The position numbers were made by a program, and so were the translations under genes. This document shows, in pieces, positions 912-12,244 of a stretch of 12,244 nt of DNA (position 1 is its first letter; the number at the start of each line of letters is the position of its first letter). The notes beneath the pieces were generated by a model that saw nothing but the letters and a program-made list of their open reading frames with translations, did not search any database and had not been told where the DNA came from. The DNA comes from a virus. Taxonomy: Duplodnaviria > Heunggongvirae > Uroviricota > Caudoviricetes. The stretch lies in the IMG/VR virus record IMGVR_UViG_2681813321_000010. The stretch is one strand, 5' to 3'.

Positions 912-1067
912 TCACTCACCTGAGTTTCTTTCCAGCCAGCGACGGGCACCATTTTCGGTTTTAAACGTTTTGCTTCTGGTATACGTCATCGCGGTAAACG
1001 TGCCGTCCTGGTTGGGAAACACGCCGTACACCAGAGATTCGTTGTTGCCAAGATCGATAGTATCCAT
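912..1067 (-). CDS. ydfA: YdfA, 51-aa small protein
   Basis: Internal ATG of the 69-aa track ORF with a GAGG ribosome-binding site gives MDTIDLGNNESLVYGVFPNQDGTFTAMTYTRSKTFKTENGARRWLERNSGE; 51 aa matches YdfA; first gene after dicA as in Qin. Confidence 0.8.
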   Translation of the reverse strand: MDTIDLGNNESLVYGVFPNQDGTFTAMTYTRSKTFKTENGARRWLERNSGE

Positions 1068-1147
1068 GCTGACCTCATTTCCCCTTAACGCTGGGGTAGC
1101 GGAACTGTTTGCTGAGAACACCGTGCGGTGTGTTGATGCAAATAAGA

Positions 1148-1200
1148 TTAGCCATGGCTAACATATAGGTCAAGTGATTTTGTATGTTATGGCTAACATG
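1148..1200. promoter_or_regulatory. Putative DicA operator pair in the dicA-ydfA intergenic region (dicB-operon promoter region)
   Basis: Perfect palindrome TTAGCCATGGCTAA (1148-1161) and ATGTTA-TGGC-TAACAT (1185-1200) share TTAG/CTAA half-sites with the dicA-dicC intergenic palindromes. Confidence 0.5.
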
Positions 1201-1233
1201 ATTGATGTGGTAAAAGATAACTCATTGATGATG

Positions 1234-1641
1234 TTATCTTTTATTTGTCCGCTGACGGGCTTTTAGTAATTCTTCAAAGAGTTTATTGAAGTTTTTTACT
1301 CGAGCTCGCATTTCGGCGAGCTGGGTATCCTGTTCTGATTCTGGCAGTGCATTAAACAGCTCAAGGAGCTCTAGTTCTTTGGGGGATAAGGCAACTGGCT
1401 TCTCAACAGGTGGTGTTGGTTGCTTGTCTTCATCGCCAAATAGAATCCATGTTGGTGAGCATTGCAATACTTTGCTGAGGGCAAAAAGGTTCTTCCCTGT
1501 AGGTTCACTATCATCCCGTTCCCATTGTGATACAGACACATGGGAGATTTTCAGGGCTTTAGCAAGAGACCTTTGGGTGTGTTTGAGGTTTTTCCGACGA
1601 TACCTAATGCGTTCGCCGATAGTTAAATTTTTTGTTTCCAT
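1234..1641 (-). CDS. dicA: DicA, HTH (Xre-family) repressor of the dicB operon; CI-like immunity repressor
   Basis: 135-aa product METKNLTIGERIRYRRKNLKHTQRSLAKALKISHVSVSQWE... matches my recollection of E. coli K-12 DicA; N-terminal HTH; divergent from dicC. Confidence 0.92.
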   Translation of the reverse strand: METKNLTIGERIRYRRKNLKHTQRSLAKALKISHVSVSQWERDDSEPTGKNLFALSKVLQCSPTWILFGDEDKQPTPPVEKPVALSPKELELLELFNALPESEQDTQLAEMRARVKNFNKLFEELLKARQRTNKR

Positions 1642-1643
1642 AG

Positions 1644-1708
1644 TTAGCTAATGCTAAATCGTATTGACTATGTTTTTGTTAACATCTATTTTGTTAGTTA
1701 TGACTAAC
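1644..1708. promoter_or_regulatory. dicA-dicC divergent control region: two operator palindromes and a candidate rightward promoter
   Basis: TTAGC-TAAT-GCTAA (1644-1657) abuts the dicA start codon; TTGACT (1664-1669), 17-bp spacer, TATTTT (1687-1692); GTTAGT-TATG-ACTAAC (1693-1708) just downstream of the -10. Confidence 0.55.
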
Positions 1709-1724
1709 AATAAAGGTGTTTTAA

Positions 1725-1955
1725 ATGCTTAAAACTGACGCTCTTTTGTATTTCGGTTCAAAAACAAAACTTGCACAAGCAGCAGGTATTCGTTTGGCTT
1801 CGCTTTATAGCTGGAAAGGGGATTTAGTTCCCGAAGGTCGCGCGATGCGTCTACAGGAGGCATCTGGCGGGGAGCTTCAGTATGATCCCAAAGTTTATGA
1901 TGAATATCGTAAGACGAAGCGGGCGGGGCGGTTGAACAATGAAAATCACTCCTGA
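1725..1955 (+). CDS. dicC: DicC, Cro-like regulator
   Basis: 76-aa product MLKTDALLYFGSKTKLAQAAGIRLASLYSWKGDLVPEGRAMRLQEASGGELQYDPKVYDEYRK... matches my recollection of DicC; divergent from dicA. Confidence 0.9.
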   Translation: MLKTDALLYFGSKTKLAQAAGIRLASLYSWKGDLVPEGRAMRLQEASGGELQYDPKVYDEYRKTKRAGRLNNENHS

Positions 1956-2460
1956 ACAGGCTCGTGAGGCTCTGGATGCCTGGATATGTCGACCAGGAAT
2001 GACACAGGAGCAGGCGACGATATTAATCACTGAAGCATTCTGGGCTTTGAAAGAGCGCCCGAACATCGATGTTCAGCGTGTCACAGATGAAGGTGGCGCG
2101 GTTGATCAGCGAGCGCTTGGCGTTAATCGAGTGAAGATATTCGAACGCTGGAAGGCTATCGACACCAGGGATAAGCGTGAAAAGTTCACGGCGCTAGTGC
2201 CTGCGATTATGGAGGCTATCCGGATTAGTGATTTCAGGTTGTATCGTGAGATCAGTGATGGAAAAAGTATTACGTACATGATCGCCGGGTTAAATAAAGA
2301 ATATGGCGATGTGGTGGAATCCGGACTGCTTTTTGCAGATCCTGCCGTTGTAGATCGTGAAACTGACGAACTTATAGAAAAAGCAATTGCTTTCAAGCTT
2401 GCGTATCGACAGCAATACCAACAAAAAGCTGGATGGAATTATGAGTCTTCTTTTTGCTGA
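1939..2460 (+). CDS. YdaT-like protein in the CII position (putative regulator)
   Basis: 173-aa ORF overlapping the dicC 3' end; segment VKIFERWKAIDTRDKREKFTALVPAIMEAI resembles the YdaT-family core as I recall it; family assignment is from memory only. Confidence 0.6.
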   Translation: MKITPEQAREALDAWICRPGMTQEQATILITEAFWALKERPNIDVQRVTDEGGAVDQRALGVNRVKIFERWKAIDTRDKREKFTALVPAIMEAIRISDFRLYREISDGKSITYMIAGLNKEYGDVVESGLLFADPAVVDRETDELIEKAIAFKLAYRQQYQQKAGWNYESSFC

Positions 2461-3406
2461 ACGCCCACTGGTTATAAACACGCAGCTGGCAATGAAAATT
2501 GGCTTAAACGAAGCCATTGTTTTGCAACAACTGCACTACTGGTTGAGAGATACCAACTCCGGCATGGAATGTGATGGTGTTCGCTGGATTTATAACACAA
2601 CGGAACAATGGCTGGAACAGTTCCCATTCTGGTCAGAGTCAACGTTAAAGCGCGCGTTTGCAAGTCTGAAAACGCTGGGGCTTTTGCGTTGTGAAAAGCT
2701 CAATAAATCAAAGCGCGATATGACCAATTTCTACACGATCAACTACGGGAGCGAGCTTTTAGATGGTGGCAAATTGAGCGAATCCATCGGTTTAAAATGC
2801 GCCGCTCCATCAGGTCAAAATGACACGATGGAAGAGGTCAAAATGAAACGCTCCATTGGTTCAAAACGACTCAATGTCATCGGGTCAAAATGGCCTGATG
2901 ATCTTACAGAGAATACAACAGAGATTACTACAGAGAATAAAAAGACTTCTCGTCCGGAAGCTTCGCAACCGGACCCGCAGACGGTTGAACAGGATTTTTT
3001 AACCCGACACCCTGACGCGGTTGTGTTCAGTGCGAAAAAACGCCAGTGGGGCAGCCAGGAAGATTTGGCGTGTGCGCAGTGGATCTGGGGGCGAATCGTG
3101 AGTCTTTACGAGCAGGCCGCCAGCGATGATGGCGAGATTTCGCGACCGAAAGAACCCAACTGGACCGCATGGGCCAACGACGTGCGCACAATGCGGATGC
3201 TGGATGGCAGAACTCACAGACAAATTTGTGAAATGTTTGGTCGGGTGCAGCGGGATCCATTCTGGGTAAAAAATATCATGAGTCCGTCAAAGCTTCGCGA
3301 AAAATGGGATGAACTGGTTATCCGCCTGGGGCGTTCGTCTGTACAGCGTTGTGTGAATCATATTTCTGAGCCGGATACCGAAATTCCGCCGGGCTTCAGG
3401 GGGTAA
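2441..3406 (+). CDS. Replication initiator, lambda O-like (N-terminal DNA-binding domain, TE-rich linker, C-terminal domain)
   Basis: Track ORF begins at TTG 2387; the ATG at 2441 overlaps the upstream stop (ATGAGTCTT...TGA) and is the likelier start; contains iterons plus an AT-rich tract inside the coding sequence, as lambda O does. Confidence 0.75.
   Translation: MSLLFAERPLVINTQLAMKIGLNEAIVLQQLHYWLRDTNSGMECDGVRWIYNTTEQWLEQFPFWSESTLKRAFASLKTLGLLRCEKLNKSKRDMTNFYTINYGSELLDGGKLSESIGLKCAAPSGQNDTMEEVKMKRSIGSKRLNVIGSKWPDDLTENTTEITTENKKTSRPEASQPDPQTVEQDFLTRHPDAVVFSAKKRQWGSQEDLACAQWIWGRIVSLYEQAASDDGEISRPKEPNWTAWANDVRTMRMLDGRTHRQICEMFGRVQRDPFWVKNIMSPSKLREKWDELVIRLGRSSVQRCVNHISEPDTEIPPGFRG
2783..2941 (+). 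repeat. Putative replication origin inside the O-like gene: five iterons followed by three 12-bp A-rich repeats
   Basis: Iterons of consensus about TCCATCGGGTCAAAATG starting at 2783, 2806, 2829, 2852, 2876 (23-24 bp period); then ACAGAGAATACA / ACAGAGATTACT / ACAGAGAATAAA at 2906-2941. Confidence 0.7.
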
Positions 3407-3446
3407 GTGTTAATTTCTGGTCATGAGGTAATTTTCAGGAGGGCTT

Positions 3447-3869
3447 GTGGCAAAAGTTTTTACACAAGAAGAGCGGGAAAAAATTAAAGGGCAGGTTGTT
3501 GAACTCGTACGCCGGAGTGGGCGTGAGACGTTACGGCAACTGGAAGTCAAGACAGGTGCGACAAGATATCTGATGAGCGTTCTCGCAAGAGAGCTGGTTG
3601 CCAGCGGCGATGTATACAACTCTGGTTACGGGTTATTCCCGTCTGAACAGGCGCGTAAGGACTGGCAAAATGCCCGTAAAAAGCTCTCAAGGGCAAAGCT
3701 GAAGGAACCATCTGCGGTTGATCCGGACCTTATCTGGTCATTACCTGACGGAGAAATACGTCGCTACGACAGGCGTCAGAACATAATCTGTCGCGAGTGC
3801 CGGAAGAGTGAAGTTATGCAGCGCATACTAGCATTCTATCAGGGAAATGCTCGATATTTATTGAAGTGA
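3447..3869 (+). CDS. Hypothetical 140-aa protein in the P position after the initiator (C-terminal CxxC)
   Basis: GTG start 4 nt after AGGAGG (3437-3442); the paralog at 7824 has ATG at the same relative position after AGGAGG; conserved between the two modules. Confidence 0.75.
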   Translation: MAKVFTQEEREKIKGQVVELVRRSGRETLRQLEVKTGATRYLMSVLARELVASGDVYNSGYGLFPSEQARKDWQNARKKLSRAKLKEPSAVDPDLIWSLPDGEIRRYDRRQNIICRECRKSEVMQRILAFYQGNARYLLK

Positions 3870-4121
3870 TGAGATTAAAGTTTATTAGTTCAGATATTGA
3901 TTGGCTCTTTTGTGGAGTAGGGTAGAGTTAGTGTGTTTGTCTGCTTGGTGCCAGCAGCGGATATGTTTAACAACAGAAAGCATTCAGCATGGTTAGTGGA
4001 TTTGCAAAGTGGATTAGGATTTGAGAAACTTTGATGAAGTTGTAAAGCTTGTTTCTATAAAAATAGAAATTTAACTAATAGTTAAACACACCTCCAGCTT
4101 CATTGAAAAGGATTATTAGCT

Positions 4122-4547
4122 ATGATTGATCCACTTATTAGAAACTTACAGAGTGATATTGCACTACTCCAGCTTTATATCGCGCAACGCAAACAGGCAG
4201 GCTTTCATGACATGGAAAGAATAATTGAGTCATTGACCATCTTTATGTTTCGCGCGCTGAAAATGGGTGAACTGGTAAACATGAATCAGATTAAAGTTAA
4301 TTTTCCCGCCATTGATTTAGCTGATAATAAAAACATGATAGCAGTTCAAGTTACTACGAATGCAAGTCCAGCAAAAATTAAAAAAACTATCGAATCTTTT
4401 GAGAAAATAAATGAAATAGGAGAGAGTCTGAAAGATAAATACTCTACTTTATATATTTTTGGTTTTAACTGTTCCGCGTGCGCTCAGCCGCATTCACCGC
4501 ATCACAAAATTCACTTTAAAAACGGCGGCAGAGCAGTCACGGAGTAA
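4122..4547 (+). pseudogene. Probable 5' fragment of an AT-rich cargo gene, truncated at the repeat junction (about 4456); the ORF tail runs into the dicF region
   Basis: Strongly AT-rich codons up to 4455, then the last ~30 codons lie in repeat sequence whose copy-1 equivalent (74-165) is preceded by unrelated DNA; ORF end overlaps dicF copy 2 on the opposite strand. Confidence 0.45.
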
Positions 4548-4575
4548 AACTGATACCGCCAAACGTCACCAGAAA
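4518..4575 (-). ncRNA. dicF: DicF small RNA, second copy
   Basis: Identical to 136-193 at offset 4382; in this copy the repeat ends about 60 bp downstream of the terminator, so no dicB can follow. Confidence 0.8.
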
Positions 4576-4915
4576 ATTGATAACAGAGGGCGTTGCAGCG
4601 GGGTTGTCGCTTAAGCGTATGGTCAACCTGACAACCCGGTGTCCTCAACGGGGAAGGAATAACCCCGCCATACTTACCGCCGCGCCATTTCGCGGAGTGC
4701 CACAACCGGAAGCGCACGGTCGACGAAAATTTAACGACAGGCTATCTATGAACCAGCTACCTCGCCGTGCGCTTTCGCGTTATGGTCTGACTTTTCATGG
4801 AAATATCCTTTCAGTAAACTGTCAGTGCCGGATGCTCACCCATGTCCGGCGCACGCACTCCACCTCACCCGTGGAGAACTCCTTAATTACCAACCTTAGC
4901 TTCGTTGGTTAGCTA

Positions 4916-5134
4916 TTAACGCGGGTATGTAATCATTCTGGCAATGCTTAATGCCGCTGCTTTTTCCAGCCTGGTGATATCCTGCTCCAGAGCGGACAGA
5001 TTTTCAGCCTGCTTAGCCCTGGCTTCATTGGCCCATTTCAGATCCTGCGCTGCATTAATTTTCTGGCGCATCCACTCATAAAGTTCATCATCGGTATAGT
5101 CTGGCGAGATGATGACGGGTTCTCGTTTCTGCAT
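4916..5134 (-). CDS. ydfC: YdfC, second copy
   Basis: 72-aa ORF identical in protein to 534-752. Confidence 0.8.
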   Translation of the reverse strand: MQKREPVIISPDYTDDELYEWMRQKINAAQDLKWANEARAKQAENLSALEQDITRLEKAAALSIARMITYPR

Positions 5135-5163
5135 ACTGATTCCTCGCGGTGCTGCTTCGCTTA

Positions 5164-5292
5164 TCAGCCGTTAGATTTTGCCGAGCTGGAAAGCGCCTGT
5201 TTAAACTCACTGAAGCTGAGAGCTTCTTCGCCTTCGGCAAGGCCTTCGAAGTATTCTTCGTAAGCCTTTTCCATGATTGTGTCGAAATCCAT
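5164..5292 (-). CDS. ydfB: YdfB, second copy (42 aa)
   Basis: DNA identical to 782-910 at offset 4382. Confidence 0.75.
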   Translation of the reverse strand: MDFDTIMEKAYEEYFEGLAEGEEALSFSEFKQALSSSAKSNG

Positions 5293-5293
5293 A

Positions 5294-5449
5294 TCACTCA
5301 CCTGAGTTTCTTTCCAGCCAGCGACGGGCACCATTTTCGGTTTTAAACGTTTTGCTTCTGGTATACGTCATCGCGGTAAACGTGCCGTCCTGGTTGGGAA
5401 ACACGCCGCATACCAGAGATTCGTTGTTGCCAAGATCGATAGTATTCAT
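5294..5449 (-). CDS. ydfA: YdfA, second copy (51 aa, two substitutions relative to copy 1)
   Basis: Same internal ATG as copy 1; product MNTIDLGNNESLVCGVFPNQ... Confidence 0.8.
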   Translation of the reverse strand: MNTIDLGNNESLVCGVFPNQDGTFTAMTYTRSKTFKTENGARRWLERNSGE

Positions 5450-5529
5450 GCTGACCTCATTTCCCCTTAACGCCGGGGTAGCGGAACTGTTTGCTGAGAA
5501 CACCGTGCGGTGTCTTGGTGGAGATTAAT

Positions 5530-5579
5530 TTAGAATAACCTAACAAATGTAGCAAGTATTTTTGTTAGATTGGTCTAAC
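5530..5579. promoter_or_regulatory. Putative operator pair downstream of the dicA-like gene (module 2 leftward-operon control region)
   Basis: TTAGAATAACCTAA (5530-5543) and palindrome GTTAGA-TTGG-TCTAAC (5564-5579); same TTAG/CTAA half-site logic as module 1. Confidence 0.45.
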
Positions 5580-5616
5580 AAAAAGAGTGAGGGAATCTAA
5601 GTATCTGAAAGGAGTG

Positions 5617-6024
5617 TTATTTTATTGATTTGTTTTTACGTGCTTTAAGCATTTCTTCGAAGAGTTTATTGAAATTCTCTACTCTTGCGCGCATTTCAGA
5701 CAGTAAGGCTTCCTGCTCGGAGGAGGGAAGAGCATCGAATAATTCGATCAATTCTTTGTGGCTGGGAGTTAACTCGGTTTCCACATGAAGTTCTTGTGCT
5801 GGCACTGGTGCCTTGTCTTCGTCACCAAACATTAGCCATGTAGGCGAGCACTTCAGCGCATCAGCTAAAGCAAATAACCGCTTCCCGACCGGTTGGGTTT
5901 CGTCTCTTTCCCATTGTGAAATTGTGACGTGAGCTACCCCAGCGAGGCGTGCAGCTTCTCGTTGTGTTAGGCGTAATTCTTTTCGTCGTGCCAGAACTCG
6001 CTGGCCTAGGGTTCTTGTATCCAT
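5617..6024 (-). CDS. DicA-like HTH repressor, divergent paralog (CI-like immunity repressor of module 2)
   Basis: 135 aa; C-terminal half nearly identical to DicA (...CSPTW..FGDEDK...EMRARV.NFNKLFEE.LKAR), N-terminal HTH diverged (QREAARLAGVAHVTISQWE). Confidence 0.85.
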   Translation of the reverse strand: MDTRTLGQRVLARRKELRLTQREAARLAGVAHVTISQWERDETQPVGKRLFALADALKCSPTWLMFGDEDKAPVPAQELHVETELTPSHKELIELFDALPSSEQEALLSEMRARVENFNKLFEEMLKARKNKSIK

Positions 6025-6030
6025 AGTTAG

Positions 6031-6090
6031 GTAATTCTAATTTTTCTTGACTTAGGTATCCCGCGCACATTACTGTTAGGAATATCTAAC
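6031..6090. promoter_or_regulatory. Module 2 divergent control region with operator palindromes
   Basis: TTAGGTAATTCTAA (6031-6044) abuts the dicA-like start; TTGACT at 6047-6052; GTTAGGAATATCTAAC (6075-6090) precedes the dicC-like gene. Confidence 0.45.
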
Positions 6091-6104
6091 AAGAGGGGGC
6101 TTTG

Positions 6105-6332
6105 ATGCTTAAAGTTGACGCAATTACTTTTTTTGGCAGCAAAACAAAACTTGCCAATGCCGCAGGAGTGAAACTGGCAAGTGTTGCTGCATGGGGGGAA
6201 CTGGTTCCTGAAGGTCGCGCGATGCGCCTGCAAGAGGCATCCGGCGGGGAACTTCAGTACGACCCCAAAGTTTATGACGAATATCGTAAGGCAAAGCGGG
6301 CGGGGCGGTTGAACAATGAAAATCACCCCTGA
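6105..6332 (+). CDS. DicC-like Cro-type regulator (paralog)
   Basis: Track ORF starts at TTG 6102; ATG at 6105 preceded by GAGGGGG; product about 85% identical to DicC by eye. Confidence 0.85.
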   Translation: MLKVDAITFFGSKTKLANAAGVKLASVAAWGELVPEGRAMRLQEASGGELQYDPKVYDEYRKAKRAGRLNNENHP

Positions 6333-6837
6333 ACAGGTTTGTGAGGCTCTGGATGCCTGGGTATGCCGACCAGGAATGACACAGGAGCAGGCGACGATAT
6401 TAATCACGGAAGCATTCTGGGCTCTGAAAGAACGCCCGAACATCGATGTTCAACGCGTCACGTTTAATGATGGCGAGGTTGATCAACGGGCGTTGGGCGT
6501 TAACCGGGTGAAGATATTCGAACGCTGGAAAGCTATCGACACCAGGGATAAGCGGGAAAAATTCACGGCGCTGATTCCGGCAATTATGGAGGCTATCCGG
6601 ATCAGCGATTTCAGGTTGTATTGTGAAATTACTGACGGAAAAAGCATTACGTACATGATCGCCGGGTTAAACAAAGAATATGGTGATGTGGTGGAGTCCG
6701 GGCTGCTTTTTGCGGATCCATCTGTTGTGGAACGTGAGACTGACGAGCTTATAGAAAAAGCTATTGCTTTCAAGCATGCGTATCGTCAGCAATACCAACA
6801 AAAAGCTGGATGGAATTATGAGCCTTCTTTTTGCTGA
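6316..6837 (+). CDS. YdaT-like protein in the CII position (paralog of 1939-2460)
   Basis: 173 aa, roughly 90% identical by eye to the module 1 copy; same overlap arrangement with neighbouring genes. Confidence 0.6.
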   Translation: MKITPEQVCEALDAWVCRPGMTQEQATILITEAFWALKERPNIDVQRVTFNDGEVDQRALGVNRVKIFERWKAIDTRDKREKFTALIPAIMEAIRISDFRLYCEITDGKSITYMIAGLNKEYGDVVESGLLFADPSVVERETDELIEKAIAFKHAYRQQYQQKAGWNYEPSFC

Positions 6838-7783
6838 ACGCCCACTGGTTATAAACACACAGCTTGCGATGAAGATTGGCTTAAATGAAGCCATTGTGTT
6901 GCAGCAGTTGCATTACTGGTTGAGAGATACCAGTTCCGGTATGGAATGTGACGGGGTTCGCTGGATTTATAACACAACAGAACAATGGCTGGAACAGTTC
7001 CCGTTCTGGTCAGAGTCAACGTTAAAACGCGCATTTGCAAGTCTGAAAACGCTGGGGCTTTTGCGTTGCGAAAAGCTCAACAAATCAAAGCGTGATATGA
7101 CTAATTTTTACACGATTAATTACGAGAGTGAGCTTTTAGATGGTGGCAAAGTGAGCGAATCCATCAGGTCAAAATGCGCCGCTCCATCGGGTCAAAATGA
7201 CACGATGGAAGAGGTCAAAATGGCACGCTCCATTGGTTCAAAACGACCCAATGTCATCGGGTCAAAATGGCCTGATGATCTTACAGAGAATACAACAGAG
7301 ATTACTACAGAGAATAAAAACACTTCTCGTCCGGAAGCTTCGCAACCGGACCCGCAGACGGCTGAACAGGATTTTTTAACCCGACACCCTGACGCGGTTG
7401 TGTTCAGTGCGAAAAAACGCCAGTGGGGAAGTCAGGAAGATTTGGCGTGCGCACAGTGGATCTGGGGACGAATCGTGAGTCTTTACGAGCAGGCTGCCAG
7501 CGATGATGGCGAGATCACGCGACCGAAAGAACCAAACTGGACCGCATGGGCCAATGACGTGCGCACAATGCGGATGCTGGATGGCAGAAGCCACAGACAA
7601 ATTTGCGAAATGTTTGGTCGGGTACAGCGAGATCCATTCTGGGTAAAAAACATCATGAGCCCGTCAAAGCTTCGCGAAAAATGGGACGACCTGGTCATCC
7701 GCCTGGGGCGTTCACCTGTACAGTGTTGTGTGAATCATATTTCTGAACCGGATACCGAAATTCCGCCTGGTTTCAGGGGATAA
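6818..7783 (+). CDS. Replication initiator, lambda O-like (paralog)
   Basis: ATG at 6818 overlaps the upstream stop exactly as in module 1; carries the equivalent iterons. Confidence 0.75.
   Translation: MSLLFAERPLVINTQLAMKIGLNEAIVLQQLHYWLRDTSSGMECDGVRWIYNTTEQWLEQFPFWSESTLKRAFASLKTLGLLRCEKLNKSKRDMTNFYTINYESELLDGGKVSESIRSKCAAPSGQNDTMEEVKMARSIGSKRPNVIGSKWPDDLTENTTEITTENKNTSRPEASQPDPQTAEQDFLTRHPDAVVFSAKKRQWGSQEDLACAQWIWGRIVSLYEQAASDDGEITRPKEPNWTAWANDVRTMRMLDGRSHRQICEMFGRVQRDPFWVKNIMSPSKLREKWDDLVIRLGRSPVQCCVNHISEPDTEIPPGFRG
7160..7318 (+). repeat. Putative replication origin of module 2 (five iterons plus A-rich 12-bp repeats)
   Basis: Iterons begin at 7160, 7183, 7206, 7229, 7253, the same positions as module 1 at offset 4377. 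Confidence 0.7.
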
Positions 7784-7823
7784 GTGGTGATTTTAGGGCA
7801 TAAAGTAATGTTCAGGAGGACTT

Positions 7824-8231
7824 ATGGCAAAAGTATTTACACAGGAAGAGCGGGAAAAAATTAAAGGACAGGTGGTGGAACTCGTGCGCCAGAGCGGTCG
7901 TGAGACGTTACGGCAACTGGAAGCTAAAACAGGTGCGACAAGATATCTGATGAGCGTTCTTGCCAGAGAGCTGGTTGCCAGTGGTGATGTATATCACTCT
8001 GGCTATGGGGTGTTCCCGTCAGAACGGGCTCGTAAGGACTGGCAAAACGCCCGCAAAAAACTCTCGAGGGCAAAGGTGAAGAAACCTGTTGTGGTTGATC
8101 CGGGCCTTATCTGGACATTACCCGACGGAGAAATACGCCGCTACGACAGGCGTATGAACATAATCTGTCGCGAGTGCCGGAAGAGCGAAGTTATGCAGCG
8201 TGTATTGGCGTTCTATCAGGGATATGCCTAG
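7824..8231 (+). CDS. Hypothetical 135-aa protein in the P position (paralog of 3447-3869)
   Basis: ATG 4 nt after AGGAGG; about 90% identical by eye to the module 1 copy. Confidence 0.75.
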   Translation: MAKVFTQEEREKIKGQVVELVRQSGRETLRQLEAKTGATRYLMSVLARELVASGDVYHSGYGVFPSERARKDWQNARKKLSRAKVKKPVVVDPGLIWTLPDGEIRRYDRRMNIICRECRKSEVMQRVLAFYQGYA

Positions 8232-8599
8232 AATTGTCACAGGTAATGAAATTAAAGAGTATTGGTTCGGATATGAATTGACATTTTCGCGGCACAGAGC
8301 TAAAAATAGCCTACTTGTTGGTTTTGTGTGAAAAGCAGACATTTTGAGGCTCAGGATTTGTTATCAAATAAGACCAATACTTATCTATATTAATACACAT
8401 TAAATACTGTGCAATACATTATTGCATTTTATTAGATAAGCGATATTTAGGGAAAAGAAAAGTCATAGAAAACAGGCCGCTATTTGTTGTTGGATTTTAT
8501 AGGCTATATCTAGATTATCTTGCCACTGCGGTCTCTGTTTACCTAACAGCTTGGGCTTCTTTGCATGCAAGTTTGTAATAACAAGAGTAATCAAACGGA

Positions 8600-9631
8600 A
8601 TGTCTATTAATCCTAAACTTAAGCGTATCGCGCGACGCTATCCAGCGTTATTCCAATATGAGTCCCCCTATATGGCAAGAAAATTAATAATATTCGGCAA
8701 CGGTCTCGGTATGGCTTTAGATCCTGCTCACTTCTCCTTAGACAGAGCGTTGGAAGAAATTTGGCATCGCCCCAATTTTTTAAAAGATATCCACAAGCAA
8801 CTTATCGAGCGTTGTCTTCAGCGGCAAGGTCCACCAGAAGGAGAACATGAGTTGGATACCCTTCACCAGGCTGTCACATATTGTAAAGCTCTTGCTCAAA
8901 TTGGAGAGGGGAACGTGCATTGGCTTACTGAAGATGGACTAAACTTCCCCAAAATTACCGCCACTTATATTCACAAAGTTGCAACCAGGTTGCATAATTA
9001 CGATAAAGGTTTGCCACAAAGATTCGAAAATGCGCTTGTGGAGTTTGTAAAGAACACACACTCACATATCGCGACATTAAACTATGACAAATTATTATAC
9101 AATTCATTCATAGATAATGATATATTCAACGGGTATGATGGGGTTTTAGTTGATGGGATGCTAAGCCACGGATTTTCCTCTGCAGCGCTCGAACGGAAAT
9201 ACAATCGTAGGTTTGGTTATTATTTGCACTTGCATGGTTCACCACTATTTATTAATCAGCATGAAAATGTTTTAAAACTTTCACGCTCACAACTTACTCT
9301 TGACATAGATGAACCTAGTGAGCATATAGTGTTAACTCATATAAAAAGAAAACCGTCAGTTATAGCAGCATCTAATGTTCTTTCTACGTACTGGGATTAT
9401 TTGCAGTTTGCATTATTTGAATCAGAAGAAATAATATTGTTTGGTTACTCTGGTCTCGATATTCACCTTAACCTGCTTATTCGACCTTACCTAACCTCTA
9501 AGCCTTTAAGAGTAATTGAGTGGAGCGGTGCTGGTGAACAAAACGCTCGTGAGATATATTGGAAAAACCAGTTGAGACGGGAAGTTACTGTAATTAGGTT
9601 GGATAACATCACTGATTTTATTGATTGGTAG
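8600..9631 (+). CDS. SIR2-like (SIR2_2-type) single-domain protein, candidate NAD-consuming defence or abortive-infection effector
   Basis: 343 aa, AT-rich codon usage; ordered motifs LIIFGNGLG (Rossmann-like), TLNYDKL (sirtuin-type N/D), YLHLHGS (His), ILFGYSGLD, in the same order as SIR2-like domains such as Thoeris ThsA; preceded by about 370 bp of AT-rich DNA. Confidence 0.6.
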   Translation: MSINPKLKRIARRYPALFQYESPYMARKLIIFGNGLGMALDPAHFSLDRALEEIWHRPNFLKDIHKQLIERCLQRQGPPEGEHELDTLHQAVTYCKALAQIGEGNVHWLTEDGLNFPKITATYIHKVATRLHNYDKGLPQRFENALVEFVKNTHSHIATLNYDKLLYNSFIDNDIFNGYDGVLVDGMLSHGFSSAALERKYNRRFGYYLHLHGSPLFINQHENVLKLSRSQLTLDIDEPSEHIVLTHIKRKPSVIAASNVLSTYWDYLQFALFESEEIILFGYSGLDIHLNLLIRPYLTSKPLRVIEWSGAGEQNAREIYWKNQLRREVTVIRLDNITDFIDW

Positions 9632-9701
9632 CGCAATGCGAAGTTAAAGAGGCAGCCTCATATTTATCAGAGCTGGTGTACGTCCAATACAGGAGGTTAT
9701 C

Positions 9702-9791
9702 GTGCTGGTTCTCAAATGCGCGCTGGCTATTGCGGCTGTAGTGGCAATTTATTGTCTTGCTATTGTTCTTATGGATCGCCTTTCTGATTGA
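9702..9791 (+). CDS. Candidate 29-aa hydrophobic single-helix peptide (VLVLKCALAIAAVVAIYCLAIVLMDRLSD)
   Basis: GTG start 5 nt after a perfect AGGAGG (9691-9696); uniformly hydrophobic core of about 20 residues; below the ORF-track size cutoff. Confidence 0.4.
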   Translation: MLVLKCALAIAAVVAIYCLAIVLMDRLSD

Positions 9792-10002
9792 TTTTATATT
9801 GGCGAGGTGACGGGAGTTAAGTAGAATTGCTGCGGGTGCTTGAGGCTGTCTGCCTCGGGCATGCCACCGTAAGGCAGACAGAGAAAAGCCCCAGTTAACA
9901 TTACGCGTCCTGCAAGACGCTTAACATTAATCTGAGGCCCAATCTATGCTTCACAAACGTAGGTTAGCCTCTTACGCGCCGAAAGGCAAGGAGAAGCAGG
10001 CT

Positions 10003-10158
10003 ATGAAGCAGCAAAAGGCGATGTTAATCGCCCTGATCGTCATCTGTTTAACCGTCATAGTGACGGCACTGGTAACGAGGAAAGACCTCTGCGAGGTACG
10101 AATCCGAACCGGCCAGACGGAGGTCGCTGTCTTCACAGCTTACGAACCTGAGGAGTAA
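10003..10158 (+). CDS. hokD: HokD (RelF), Hok/Gef-family type I membrane toxin
   Basis: MKQQKAMLIALIVICLTVIVTALVTRKDLCEVRIRTGQTEVAVFTAYEPEE matches my recollection of HokD and the Hok signature (TRK.LCE.R...G..EVA.F.AYE); the track ORF from 9946 is an in-frame upstream extension. Confidence 0.85.
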   Translation: MKQQKAMLIALIVICLTVIVTALVTRKDLCEVRIRTGQTEVAVFTAYEPEE

Positions 10159-10226
10159 GAGACCAGGCGGGGGAGAAATCCCTCGCCACCGCTGATGTGT
10201 CAGGCATCCTCAACGCACCCGCACTT

Positions 10227-10253
10227 AACCCGCTTCGGCGGGTTTTTGTTTTT
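10227..10253 (+). terminator. Intrinsic terminator after hokD
   Basis: CCCGC-TTCG-GCGGG stem-loop (10229-10242) followed by TTTTTGTTTTT. Confidence 0.8.
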
Positions 10254-10266
10254 ATTTTCAACGCAT

Positions 10267-10296
10267 TTGAAGTTCTGGACGGTGTCGGAATAGAAT
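10267..10296 (+). promoter_or_regulatory. Candidate sigma70 promoter for the 83-aa gene
   Basis: TTGAAG (10267-10272), 18-bp spacer, TAGAAT (10291-10296); lies just after the hokD terminator. Confidence 0.4.
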
Positions 10297-10374
10297 CAAA
10301 AATACTTAAGTAGCGCGCAGGGATAAGAGGGATGGTCCCTTAAAGGGGAGAGCTAATTATCCGGAAGGATTCTG

Positions 10375-10626
10375 ATGATGAACATCGAAGAACTGCGTAA
10401 AATTTTTTGTGAAGATGGCCTCTATGCTGTGTGCGTTGAAAATGGAAATATTGTTAGTCATTACCGCATTGTGTGTTTGCGAAAGAATGGGGCTGCGTTA
10501 ATTAATTTTGTGGATGGTCGAGTGACAGACGGATTTATCTTGCGCGAAGGTGAGTTTGTCACTTCATTACAGGCACTGAAAGAGATCGGAATAAAAGCTG
10601 GCTTTTCTGCTTTTTCAGAAGAATAA
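10375..10626 (+). CDS. 83-aa hypothetical prophage protein, possibly the Rem homolog
   Basis: GGAAGG 6 nt upstream of the ATG; same size as Rem (83 aa) and same position between hokD and the ydfU-like gene as in Qin; I cannot recall the Rem sequence to confirm. Confidence 0.65.
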   Translation: MMNIEELRKIFCEDGLYAVCVENGNIVSHYRIVCLRKNGAALINFVDGRVTDGFILREGEFVTSLQALKEIGIKAGFSAFSEE

Positions 10627-10692
10627 ACTCATCTACAATCTTGCGCGGGGCTGAACTCCCGCTGAGTAACACCGTGCCGCCGGAGGAAACCG

Positions 10693-10971
10693 ATGGCACG
10701 CAACGCAAAATATTACAATCATGATAATTCGACCGTTCTTGCCCACACGCACGAGCGGTATTCTCACGCATTTAAGTCAGACTGGTACCAGCATCCCCCA
10801 TGCACTGAAGAACAGGCCGAATGGCTCATTCAGTGTTACCGCAGGCGCGGATGCGAGGTTAAAAAAGCCCTTAGCCTCGACTACCGTCACTGGATAATCT
10901 CCGTCGGGCTTCCTTACTCCGAACGCCCACCGCGTCTGTCCCGCACATTCCAGCAACGCATCTGGAGGTAA
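10693..10971 (+). CDS. 92-aa hypothetical protein
   Basis: GGAGG 7 nt upstream of the ATG; stop immediately precedes the next gene's start. Confidence 0.6.
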   Translation: MARNAKYYNHDNSTVLAHTHERYSHAFKSDWYQHPPCTEEQAEWLIQCYRRRGCEVKKALSLDYRHWIISVGLPYSERPPRLSRTFQQRIWR

Positions 10972-10972
10972 C

Positions 10973-12022
10973 GTGCGGGTATTACTTCGACCTGTTCTGG
11001 TACCGGAACTCGGGCTGGTGGTCCTTAAGCCCGGTCGCGAATCACTGCCGGTTTTTCATTGCGGCAGGGTGCTGGTGGAGCCGGAACCGAAAAGCATGCG
11101 CGGTCTGCCGTCCGGAGTCGTCCCTGCCGTTCGCCAGCCGCTGGCGGAGGATAAATCATTACTGCCATTTTTCAGCGATGAGCGTGTGATTCGTGCTGCT
11201 GGCGGCGCTGGCGCACTGTCTGACTGGCTCCTGCGTCATGTCAAATCCTGCCAGTGGCCTCATGGTGACTACCATCACAGTGAAACCGTCATACATCGTT
11301 ATGGTACCGGCGCAATGGTGTTGTGCTGGCACTGCGACAACCAGCTGCGCGACCAGACCTCCGAATCACTCGGGCAACTTGCTCACCAAAACCTGTCTGC
11401 ATGGATGATTGACGTCATACGCCATGCAATGAATGGCTCGCAGGAACGGGAATTATCGCTGGCTGAATTATCCTGGTGGGCGATCCGCAATCAGGTGGCG
11501 GACGCGCTACCGGAAGCGGTATTACGTCGTTCGCTGGGGTTGCGTGCGGAAAAAATCCGCTCAATGTACCGTGAAAGCGACATCGTACCGGGAGAGCAGA
11601 CCGCCACCAGCATACTGAAACAGCGCACAAAAAATCTTGCGCCGCTGCCTCACGCCCACCAGCAACAGAACCCGCCACAGGAAAAGACGGTGGTCAGCAT
11701 TGCTGTTGATCCGGAGTCTCCGGAATCTTTAATGAAGCGACCTAAACGTCGCCGTTGGGTAAATGAGAAATATACGCGCTGGGTAAAGACACAGCCGTGT
11801 GCGTGTTGTGGTAAGCCAGCCGACGATCCCCATCACCTGATTGGTCATGGTCAGGGCGGAATAGGGACAAAAGCCCACGATATTTTCACGCTACCGTTGT
11901 GCCGGGAGCATCACAACGAACTTCATGCTGATCCGCTGGCATTTGAAGAAAAGCATGGTTCCCAGATTGATTTAATTTTTCGTTTTCTTGATCGCGCCTT
12001 TGCAACCGGCGTGCTCGGGTAA
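10973..12022 (+). CDS. DUF968-family prophage protein (YdfU-like) with a C-terminal HNH-like Cys/His motif
   Basis: 349 aa; GTG start after GGAGG; C-terminus CACCGKPADDPHHLIGHG...LPLCREHHNELHA resembles HNH/zinc-binding nuclease motifs; size and synteny match Qin ydfU. Confidence 0.7.
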   Translation: MRVLLRPVLVPELGLVVLKPGRESLPVFHCGRVLVEPEPKSMRGLPSGVVPAVRQPLAEDKSLLPFFSDERVIRAAGGAGALSDWLLRHVKSCQWPHGDYHHSETVIHRYGTGAMVLCWHCDNQLRDQTSESLGQLAHQNLSAWMIDVIRHAMNGSQERELSLAELSWWAIRNQVADALPEAVLRRSLGLRAEKIRSMYRESDIVPGEQTATSILKQRTKNLAPLPHAHQQQNPPQEKTVVSIAVDPESPESLMKRPKRRRWVNEKYTRWVKTQPCACCGKPADDPHHLIGHGQGGIGTKAHDIFTLPLCREHHNELHADPLAFEEKHGSQIDLIFRFLDRAFATGVLG

Positions 12023-12034
12023 AAGAGGTTACTG

Positions 12035-12244
12035 ATGCGTATAGAGTTTGTTTTGCCTTACCCGCCGACGGTGAACACCTACTGGCGACGTCGTGGCAGC
12101 ACATATTTTGTGTCAAAAGCCGGTGAGCGTTATCGCCGGGATGTGGCACTTATTGTTCGCCAGCAGCGGCTGAAATTAAACCTGTCCGGAAGGCTGGCGA
12201 TAAAGATTATTGCAGAGCCACCGGATAAGCGCCGCCGCGACCTG
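12035..12244 (+). CDS. rusA: RusA-family Holliday-junction resolvase, 5' partial (runs off the window end)
   Basis: MRIEFVLPYPPTVNTYWRRRG...YRRDVALIV...IKIIAEPPDKRRRDL matches the RusA N-terminal pattern (P..N.Y....G......YR..VA.I......I.I....PD.RRRDLDN); AGAGG ribosome-binding site. Confidence 0.8.
   Translation, partial: MRIEFVLPYPPTVNTYWRRRGSTYFVSKAGERYRRDVALIVRQQRLKLNLSGRLAIKIIAEPPDKRRRDL

Follow-up and report, generated by a model that had tools for sequence, protein, structure and literature searches.

A cargo slot delimited by recombinase-type sites in Qin/Rac-like lambdoid prophages

How does one position in a prophage genome come to hold one unrelated set of genes after another, and where exactly does each set begin and end? 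The question is raised by a 12,244-bp stretch of DNA (hereafter the window; IMG/VR record IMGVR_UViG_2681813321_000010) that carries two tandem early regions of the Qin/Rac type of lambdoid prophage. Both modules have the same gene order, that of leftward small genes with DicF, a DicA-family repressor, a Cro-like gene, a YdaT/CII-like gene, an O-like replication gene and a DUF977 gene of 135–140 amino acids, and a preliminary description made from the window alone proposed that unrelated accessory genes are swapped at a fixed site just past the last of these. Defence hotspots are well documented, and the speed and precision with which their content is exchanged is an acknowledged open question. 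We find that the interval from DUF977 to hokD is the cargo slot of a Qin/Rac-like lambdoid prophage family and that it is delimited by recombinase-type sites. What is shown directly is the hotspot, the sites, the positions of the breakpoints, the cassettes common to several replicon types and the linkage of site and recombinase across genera.

The DUF977–hokD slot and its 24-bp boundaries

Loci with close relatives of the DUF977 gene were retrieved, and the interval from the DUF977 stop codon to hokD was extracted from each and clustered (loci are identified below by L numbers). Seventy-four loci yield 24 unrelated occupants of 1.1–6.0 kb, and 120 loci yield 38; because these 38 unrelated occupants share one slot, the hotspot interpretation is correct at its core, and listing the locus across related prophages, as the preliminary description had suggested, does not turn up the same single gene. 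The arrangement is that of a hotspot in the P2/P4 sense, with DUF977 on the left, hokD on the right and variable content between them, and Pfam and PADLOC matches among the occupants reveal enrichment for defence. Known defence occupants are a cyclic-oligonucleotide-based anti-phage signalling system (CBASS) cyclase with a 2TM effector (4.7e-144), AbiH, Lit and PD-T7-1 (7e-157), homologues of which others have validated as anti-phage; further PADLOC families in the slot are Tmn-like, NsnABC, Hp1-3, PDC-S15, PDC-S33 and PDC-M68B, and RES/HEPN-type domains also occur. Judged from such matches, most occupants appear to be genes for defence against phage, from which the lysogen would benefit. Cargo outside defence comprises QueH, a BCCT transporter with DUF2254, and NUDIX with HAD. 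The CBASS cassette of one locus (L038, ~6444–6626) has a fragment matching tRNA-Pro and, inside it, a gene annotated in RefSeq as 'recombinase', which hints that this cargo derives from a tRNA-integrating island.

The slot is bounded by two 24-bp sites of 9-6-9 layout, in which inverted arms (GTCCGCTYT/ANAGCGGAC) enclose a 6-bp core, GTGCCA in the left (L) site and TCGCTC in the right (R) site. Written in full, GTCCGCTTT GTGCCA AAAGCGGAC and GTCCGCTCC TCGCTC AAAGCGGAC have the layout of tyrosine-recombinase core sites. The L 24-mer, GTCCGCTTTGTGCCAAnAGCGGAC, ends the conserved left flank and starts 69 nt past the DUF977 stop codon in 21 cargo types, and the R 24-mer, GTCCGCTCTTCGCTCAAAGCGGAC, or a degenerate form of it, opens the right flank exactly 504 nt 5' of hokD in 18; the L core reads GTGCCA in 19/22 cargo types and the R core TCGCTC in 14/18. 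The reverse complement of R is similar to L, with local alignment scores of 22–34 in four loci, above all shuffles in three of them (shuffle mean 13, maxima 23–29). In 2.3 Mb of DNA from related prophages, strict matches number 56 for L and 42 for R, all on one strand, compared with zero in shuffled sequence, and a looser scan of the first 82 loci returns matches at the slot only, except for a weak 24-mer ~5 kb downstream in three loci. The L-class site of module 1, GTCTGCTTG GTGCCA GCAGCGGAT (9-6-9; 3939–3962, + strand), is the true left boundary of the cargo, and within the window it is the only L-class site found with an intact core. A separate 24-mer that pairs the exact L core with poor arms (8 of 12), TTTCGCGGA GTGCCA CAACCGGAA, lies at 306–329 and again at 4688–4711. 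Most related prophages keep it, ~4 kb to the left of the slot, and it may represent a third site in degenerate form or have arisen by chance.

Breakpoints were located by pairwise identity among cargo types, in sets anchored on the neighbouring backbone and not selected on the site. Across L, identity is 0.85 in the backbone arm, 0.87 in the core, 0.61 in the cargo-side arm and 0.38 beyond; across R, it is 0.35 beyond, 0.59 in the cargo-side arm, 0.93 in the core and 0.91 in the backbone arm. Backbone arm and core are conserved and the cargo arm is variable, as in a recombinant joint, a pattern that would be expected for strand exchange at the core with the inner arm supplied by each cargo. 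In thousands of genomes, flank homology ends at the last base of L and resumes at the first base of R, and in a comparison of the window with a related cassette in another phage (the SMEK cassette of L178) homology begins inside the L core itself, at GCCA. The swap boundary, earlier placed 45–50 bp past the gene, is found instead within the 24-bp site at 3939–3962, 70–93 nt past the stop codon. Because their cores differ, L and R should not recombine with each other. The composite cargos L014 and L171, the latter from strain WCHEC115106, contain an alternating array, L,R,L,R,L,R, and a doublet in which R and L are separated by 18 nt forms a 66-bp imperfect palindrome.

A recombinase gene and cassettes outside the slot

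One R-to-L interval of a composite cargo (L014 9378–9986) holds the gene for a tyrosine recombinase of ~200 amino acids. Its product, of which WP_001305361.1 is an example, matches Pfam Phage_integrase (2e-17) and has the R, H-x-x-R, H and Y motifs by inspection; it reaches the cut-off of no named NCBIfam family, and on the closest models, Xer-like and FimB/E-like invertases, it scores far too low. We find the gene in 894 of 5426 complete E. coli genomes, with 42 of its places on plasmids, and its settings include CP4-like islands, a second kind of island and an IncF plasmid, with L and R sites bracketing the neighbouring genes each time. In L014 and L171–L176 an R-class site always precedes the recombinase gene and an L-class site lies 18–20 nt past its stop codon; whether in prophage, island or plasmid, the recombinase module has R at one end and L at the other. 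Many Klebsiella plasmids (558) match over ~75 nt only, a segment that comprises half of an R-class site, the leader and the first recombinase codons and suggests a widespread truncated remnant of the gene.

The recombinase is 77–95% identical across Enterobacterales, Proteus/Providencia, Pantoea, Idiomarina, Pseudoalteromonas and marine metagenomes, and E. coli, Proteus, Idiomarina and marine contigs resembling integrative and conjugative elements (ICEs) all have an L-class site past the stop codon of its gene. In Idiomarina sp. X4 (CP025000.1; L179 8631–15534), L and a perfect-arm R bracket a 6.9-kb module beside the recombinase gene. This module encodes a PhoQ-like kinase, a response regulator, an EptA-type phosphoethanolamine transferase, PAP2 and a diacylglycerol kinase, a gene set reminiscent of mobile colistin-resistance contexts. 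On ICE-like contigs from a marine metagenome and a metagenome-assembled genome (L184–L186) the recombinase gene lies between arsenic-resistance and copper/cus genes, and in Proteus mirabilis (L181–L183) it stands beside SIR2-STAND, AbiJ-like and Mrr-STAND genes near icd.

We find the same cassettes, with ends at these sites, in replicons of different kinds. Prophage L015 (6630–10326) and IncF plasmid L176 of strain 222 (5310–9006) are 99.84% identical over 3697 bp that carry the BCCT and DUF2254 genes and run from an L site to the next L, and prophage L010 (8824–9864) is 99.4% identical to L176 (8975–10015) from 9 nt before L to the end of R. An island also contains the R-18 nt-L doublet of L014, flanked there by other genes on both sides, and the window's own SMEK cassette is also present, at 84% identity, in the unrelated phage backbone of L178. 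The stretch of phage backbone that precedes L in the window (3870–3938) is not common to the plasmid and island copies of cassettes. Site-bounded modules include anti-phage systems, metal resistance, EptA-type lipid A modification and transporters.

Proposed exchange and its alternatives

We infer, with a probability of roughly 0.6, that the ~200-residue recombinase catalyses the exchange and that cassettes are exchanged site-specifically in trans. The recombinase, encoded elsewhere, would act in trans on the slot, where L × L and R × R recombination would swap whole L-to-R modules among prophages, islands and plasmids, either by double exchange or through an excised circle that integrates before a deletion takes place; the R-18 nt-L doublets and the arrays have the appearance of intermediates in this second route. 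Module 1 of the window keeps an L site with an intact core, and its SMEK cassette was later cut, at 4456–4466, by an unrelated microhomology junction. A wider proposal, to which we give slightly less than even odds, is that Gammaproteobacteria possess a widespread cassette-exchange system, apparently not described before, which has the slot as one of its docking points and consists of a highly conserved recombinase and two mutually incompatible 24-bp sites. Modules would then move between lambdoid prophages, CP4-like islands, ICE-like elements and IncF plasmids.

Several observations weigh against exchange by this recombinase. About 14 of the 38 occupant types sit in a variant backbone without recognisable L or R sites, and some cargos arrive or persist by other routes, as does the SIR2 cargo of module 2, which has no R site and a degenerate L. 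The recombinase is encoded neither in the window nor in most slot-bearing prophages, and its tie to the sites appears as association, or genetic linkage. A fused left-plus-right flank query and a gapped pattern find no empty slot in the 5426 genomes, and no excised circles were observed; the shortest interval (L083 1623–1845, E. coli strain A20) contains a 224-bp remnant of AbiH cargo and, because both ends of that cargo are retained, reflects a deletion within the cargo and not a vacant slot. For the boundary motifs a role as RNA or DNA hairpins was rejected, with folding no better than that of shuffles (z −0.3 to −1.0), and so was a hairpin of a circular cassette, in which the left 3' arm would pair with the right 5' arm, with no covariation of the cargo-side arms (P = 0.33). 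A search for more distant DUF977 backbones for this covariation test returned 8 loci, all Escherichia/Shigella-like.

The principal alternative is homologous recombination only, RecA-mediated or by phage RecE/RecT-type functions, through the ~95-bp left and ~500-bp right flanks, with the 24-mers as passive backbone elements (regulatory hairpins or protein-binding sites) that mark where selection permits variation. The flanks are long enough for this and 90–97% identical among phages, a large exonuclease gene adjoins the early-left genes of slot prophages, and the window, which has no recombinase gene, carries a homologous crossover at 1003–1026; the SIR2, QueH and variant-backbone cargos, which are without sites, point the same way. 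What such recombination leaves unexplained are the breaks inside a 6-bp core, the strictly alternating arrays and the presence of the same two core classes beside the recombinase in Idiomarina and Proteus. Moreover, the cassettes of an IncF plasmid and of islands are identical without the phage flanks, and end at the 24-mers or ≤9 nt from them. We therefore regard homologous exchange as the sole route as unlikely.

Another possibility is that L and R are real recombination sites served by a different enzyme, either host XerC/XerD, as in the dif modules of Acinetobacter, or a phage integrase, and that the recombinase gene is a passenger module. This gene is itself a module between R and L sites, and genomes with slot flanks number >1600 compared with 894 with the recombinase, so that most slot genomes may be without it; dif modules offer a precedent for the use of a host enzyme. 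E. coli dif has an 11-6-11 layout, GGTGCGCATAA TGTATA TTATGTTAAAT, and the sites of dif modules alternate in orientation. L and R are 24 bp long rather than dif-like 28-bp XerC/XerD sites and, by inspection against the dif sequence, unrelated to it, while in architecture and behaviour they are analogous. An L-class site lies 18–20 nt past the recombinase stop codon in every genus examined, and the recombinase is unusually conserved (77–95% across orders), as expected if it co-evolves with fixed sites. We consider a different enzyme quite improbable, and favour exchange by the linked recombinase.

Comparison with known systems places the slot as another case of the P2/P4 type when viewed as a defence hotspot. 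It resembles the P2/P4 hotspots (PMC9122126; Vassallo et al. 2022, PMC9519451) in its fixed position, in the many unrelated anti-phage systems found in similar prophages, in the atypical composition of the cargo and in some of the same named systems, e.g., PD-T7-1; it differs in belonging to a lambdoid Qin/Rac-like family, where it lies between a ren-like gene and hokD, and in having defined recombinase-type sites. The P2/P4 paper leaves the route of exchange open and suggests cos-end recombination, and a survey of E. coli islands could not determine the mode of mobilisation. The dif modules of Acinetobacter (PMC13141974, PMC9455709) are likewise bounded by short core-type sites and shuffled between replicons, but use dif-like 28-bp XerC/XerD sites and host Xer enzymes on plasmids of one genus; here we find 24-bp sites with two fixed cores and a dedicated ~200-residue recombinase in prophages, islands and plasmids of several orders.

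Integrons share with this system cassette arrays with imperfect palindromic sites beside a tyrosine recombinase, and the R-18 nt-L doublet is reminiscent of attC. Integron-integrase models, however, give the recombinase 17–18 bits against cut-offs of 265–435, and the cassettes here have no attI/Pc platform, show both orientations and their own leaders, and are bounded by two site classes rather than one. The PeSL cassettes of T4-type phages (Arbiol et al. 2010, PMC2839356) and the lambdoid 'morons' are similar in that motifs flank variable, non-essential genes at breakpoints and the cargo is compositionally foreign. PeSL elements consist of a promoter and a terminator stem-loop and are exchanged homologously (PMC2839356), whereas we find no terminator here, the sole promoter-like site beside a 24-mer is a weak one at 8278–8307, and the motifs also occur outside phages, beside the recombinase. 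Of the features of a moron, deviating G+C content is found, and a promoter and terminator of its own and an empty site in relatives are not. Small tyrosine recombinases of the FimB/FimE kind are comparable in length (~200 amino acids), in consisting of the catalytic domain only and in acting at short inverted-repeat sites; unlike these, the recombinase here scores weakly on invertase models (27.5 bits against a cut-off of 222). We also rejected inversion of the cargo between L and R, which are inverted relative to each other, since no cargo occurs in both orientations in the 120 loci. The site-bounded, recombinase-linked architecture thus lacks the defining features of dif modules, integrons and PeSL, and the searchable open-access literature, of incomplete coverage, yielded no description of the site sequences, the slot or the role of this recombinase family.

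The two modules of the window

The window is a recombinant in three parts, drawn from two prophage types that E. coli O111:H2 strain 12A carries separately. Positions 4456–12244 are 100% identical to the prophage located at 3.37 Mb in this strain (L002), 1027–4466 correspond to the one at 2.13 Mb (L001) with a single mismatch at 1710, and 1–1002 are of the L002 type, which places a homologous crossover at 1003–1026. Within the window, 74–1135 is repeated at 4456–5517 (99.5%) and 1818–3897 at 6195–8274 (90.1%, offset 4377), this second repeat extending 28 nt beyond the module 1 DUF977 stop codon; between the repeats the immunity genes differ, so that two different DicA-family immunity regions stand in tandem. 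The two prophage types meet at 4456–4466 in an illegitimate join of 11-bp microhomology, TTTTTGGTTTT, which fuses a SMEK gene to the dicB-dicF intergenic region of the second type. We find no second instance of this junction in the 5426 complete E. coli genomes, GTDB species-representative genomes, metagenome contigs, IMG/VR or a gene catalogue and exact-protein index, and this scarcity, with the match of both parts to separate prophages of a single strain, is what an assembly or cloning chimera would predict. Eleven base pairs of microhomology are, however, too short for k-mer assemblers, and the join is accompanied by a clean homologous crossover, as a real unequal exchange between co-resident prophages would leave; the pairing of the two favours a real event, and we judge a chimera rather unlikely, if less so than the other alternatives considered above. 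The hotspot conclusion does not depend on the junction being real, because it is based on separate loci.

As the preliminary description had noted, the two modules carry different cargo, which we identify as SMEK in module 1 and SIR2 in module 2, and both are AT-rich, with a G+C content of 0.30–0.46 compared with ~0.47–0.55 in flanks and backbone. The open reading frame beginning MIDPLIRNLQ, which had been named as the module 1 cargo, does differ from module 2 and is not an intact gene. It spans 4122–4547 as a fusion of SMEK codons 1–115 (4122–4466, + strand; Pfam SMEK_N, 1.1e-22) with 26 read-through codons into the left arm of module 2, and the match covers model positions 2–102 of 140, so that neither a complete SMEK_N domain nor the full-length protein is present. 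The intact gene of strain 12A (L001 7723–8622) encodes 299 amino acids of Mrr-like nuclease fold, and the window's identity to 12A ends at 4466; the SMEK N-domain matches the Mrr domain of an Mrr-APAZ protein (7e-8). The cassette, present in 153 genomes, comprises three genes in its intact relatives, those for SMEK, a class I S-adenosylmethionine-dependent methyltransferase and a membrane protein. From its sequence, the module 1 cargo is read as a dead, truncated remnant, cut by the prophage–prophage junction at 4456–4466.

The AT-rich 5' leader of the SMEK cassette (3963–4121, + strand) holds the two palindromes that had been proposed as regulatory sites of this cargo. Both exist, with arms at 4052–4058/4063–4069 and 4070–4077/4079–4086, the second being one base longer on each side (4070–4086) than first described. 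They are mildly unusual, in that 1.6% of dinucleotide shuffles contain two inverted repeats of this kind and 12% contain one, yet in the diverged L178 copy of the cassette (84% identical) the first is lost and the second is split by a 14-nt insertion, and a scan of 3800–4200 finds no promoter-like site near the start of the cargo. Because the palindromes are broken in L178, a conserved regulatory role is not supported; they may have a role in the allele of the window.

The SIR2 cargo of module 2 occupies 8341–9648 (+ strand) and is found in 46 of the 5426 genomes. Its longest open reading frame, 8600–9631, encodes 343 amino acids, compared with 319 from the RefSeq start at 8672, where the product is named 'SIR2 family protein'. 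The SIR2-type domain is borderline (Pfam SIR2_2, 1e-05, 26.1 bits against a cut-off of 24.5); GNGLG and HLHGS motifs are apparent by inspection, PADLOC gives weak matches to Aga_SIR2, PDC-S21 and SIR2, and no solved structural relative is detectable by sequence. The cargo extends past the canonical R position at 9499 and thus has no R site, and the family alignment identifies its L-class site as degenerate, GTTGGTTTT GTGTGA AAAGCAGAC (8317–8340, + strand), with two mismatches in the core; an 87%-identical SIR2 cargo in L177 has a similarly eroded L. With L eroded and R missing, this cargo is probably no longer exchangeable through the two sites, and it probably arrived or was fixed by another route.

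To the left of the slot, the DUF977 gene of module 1 (3447–3869, + strand, 140 amino acids; Pfam DUF977, 2e-30) matches PHROG 142, 'Ren-like exclusion protein' (3.4e-46), and is called LygF in phage records; its module 2 counterpart (7824–8231, + strand) encodes 135 amino acids (1.7e-29). The name 'P-position gene' used for it before holds as a positional label only, since the gene is Ren-like and the slot therefore lies at the place of the lambda ren/nin boundary. The intergenic backbone that follows is kept whatever the cargo in an alignment of 24 cargo types, at 3870–3938 in module 1 and 8247–8316 in module 2. The reported homology between the modules past this gene is real, although the register given for it was ~6 nt off: 3872–3915 against 8241–8284 gives 27% identity, which is chance level, while 3870–3915 against 8247–8292 gives 34/46 (74%). 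In the correct register the match is not chance, answering a doubt raised with the original claim; the pairwise local score of 33, against a maximum of 32 in 1000 shuffles, is modest by itself, and the homology is secure because the 24-type family alignment supports it. Nor is it limited to 45–50 bp, since the conserved flank runs for ~95 nt (3870–3964, partner 8247–8342 rather than 8241–8288) at 55% identity between modules, and identity beyond is 30%.

Scanning 3800–4200 reveals no consensus promoter and no terminator, and scanning 8180–8680 no terminator and just a weak promoter-like pair, TTGACA (8278–8283) and AAAAAT (8302–8307) separated by 18 nt; intrinsic terminators and consensus promoters were accordingly rejected as slot boundaries. 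By eye, and below the scan threshold, a weak promoter-like pair can be seen within 3870–3938 (TTGGCT 3901–3906, 16 nt, TAGAGT 3923–3928). An Rfam scan finds no match at the slot boundaries and, in the window, just the DicF antisense small RNA, one copy per module (141–192 and 4523–4574, − strand, 72.5 bits each), and the sok antitoxin RNA 5' of hokD (9834–10008, + strand, 116 bits). The right flank picks up again at 9649 and leads into the hok/sok locus (9649–10158, + strand; hokD annotated at 10003–10158), 94.5% identical to L001. In most loci (e.g., L023 11246–11533) the backbone between the R site and hok, ~500 nt 5' of hokD, contains a conserved, unannotated Cys-rich open reading frame of ~96 codons (...GVFKEVLVVTGCC...).

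The window itself is made of two modules from different prophages joined by recombination, and the module 1 cargo is a dead remnant. If the proposed exchange is true, site-specific recombination would be a concrete mechanism for refilling defence hotspots and a natural counterpart of the recombinase-mediated cassette exchange used in the laboratory. Cargo slots could then be located from sequence alone through the 24-bp sites, and new defence genes with them, and one route would link phage defence, metal resistance and possibly plasmid modules of the polymyxin-resistance type. Should the sites and the recombinase act as the comparative data suggest, the question of how hotspot content is exchanged would become directly testable.

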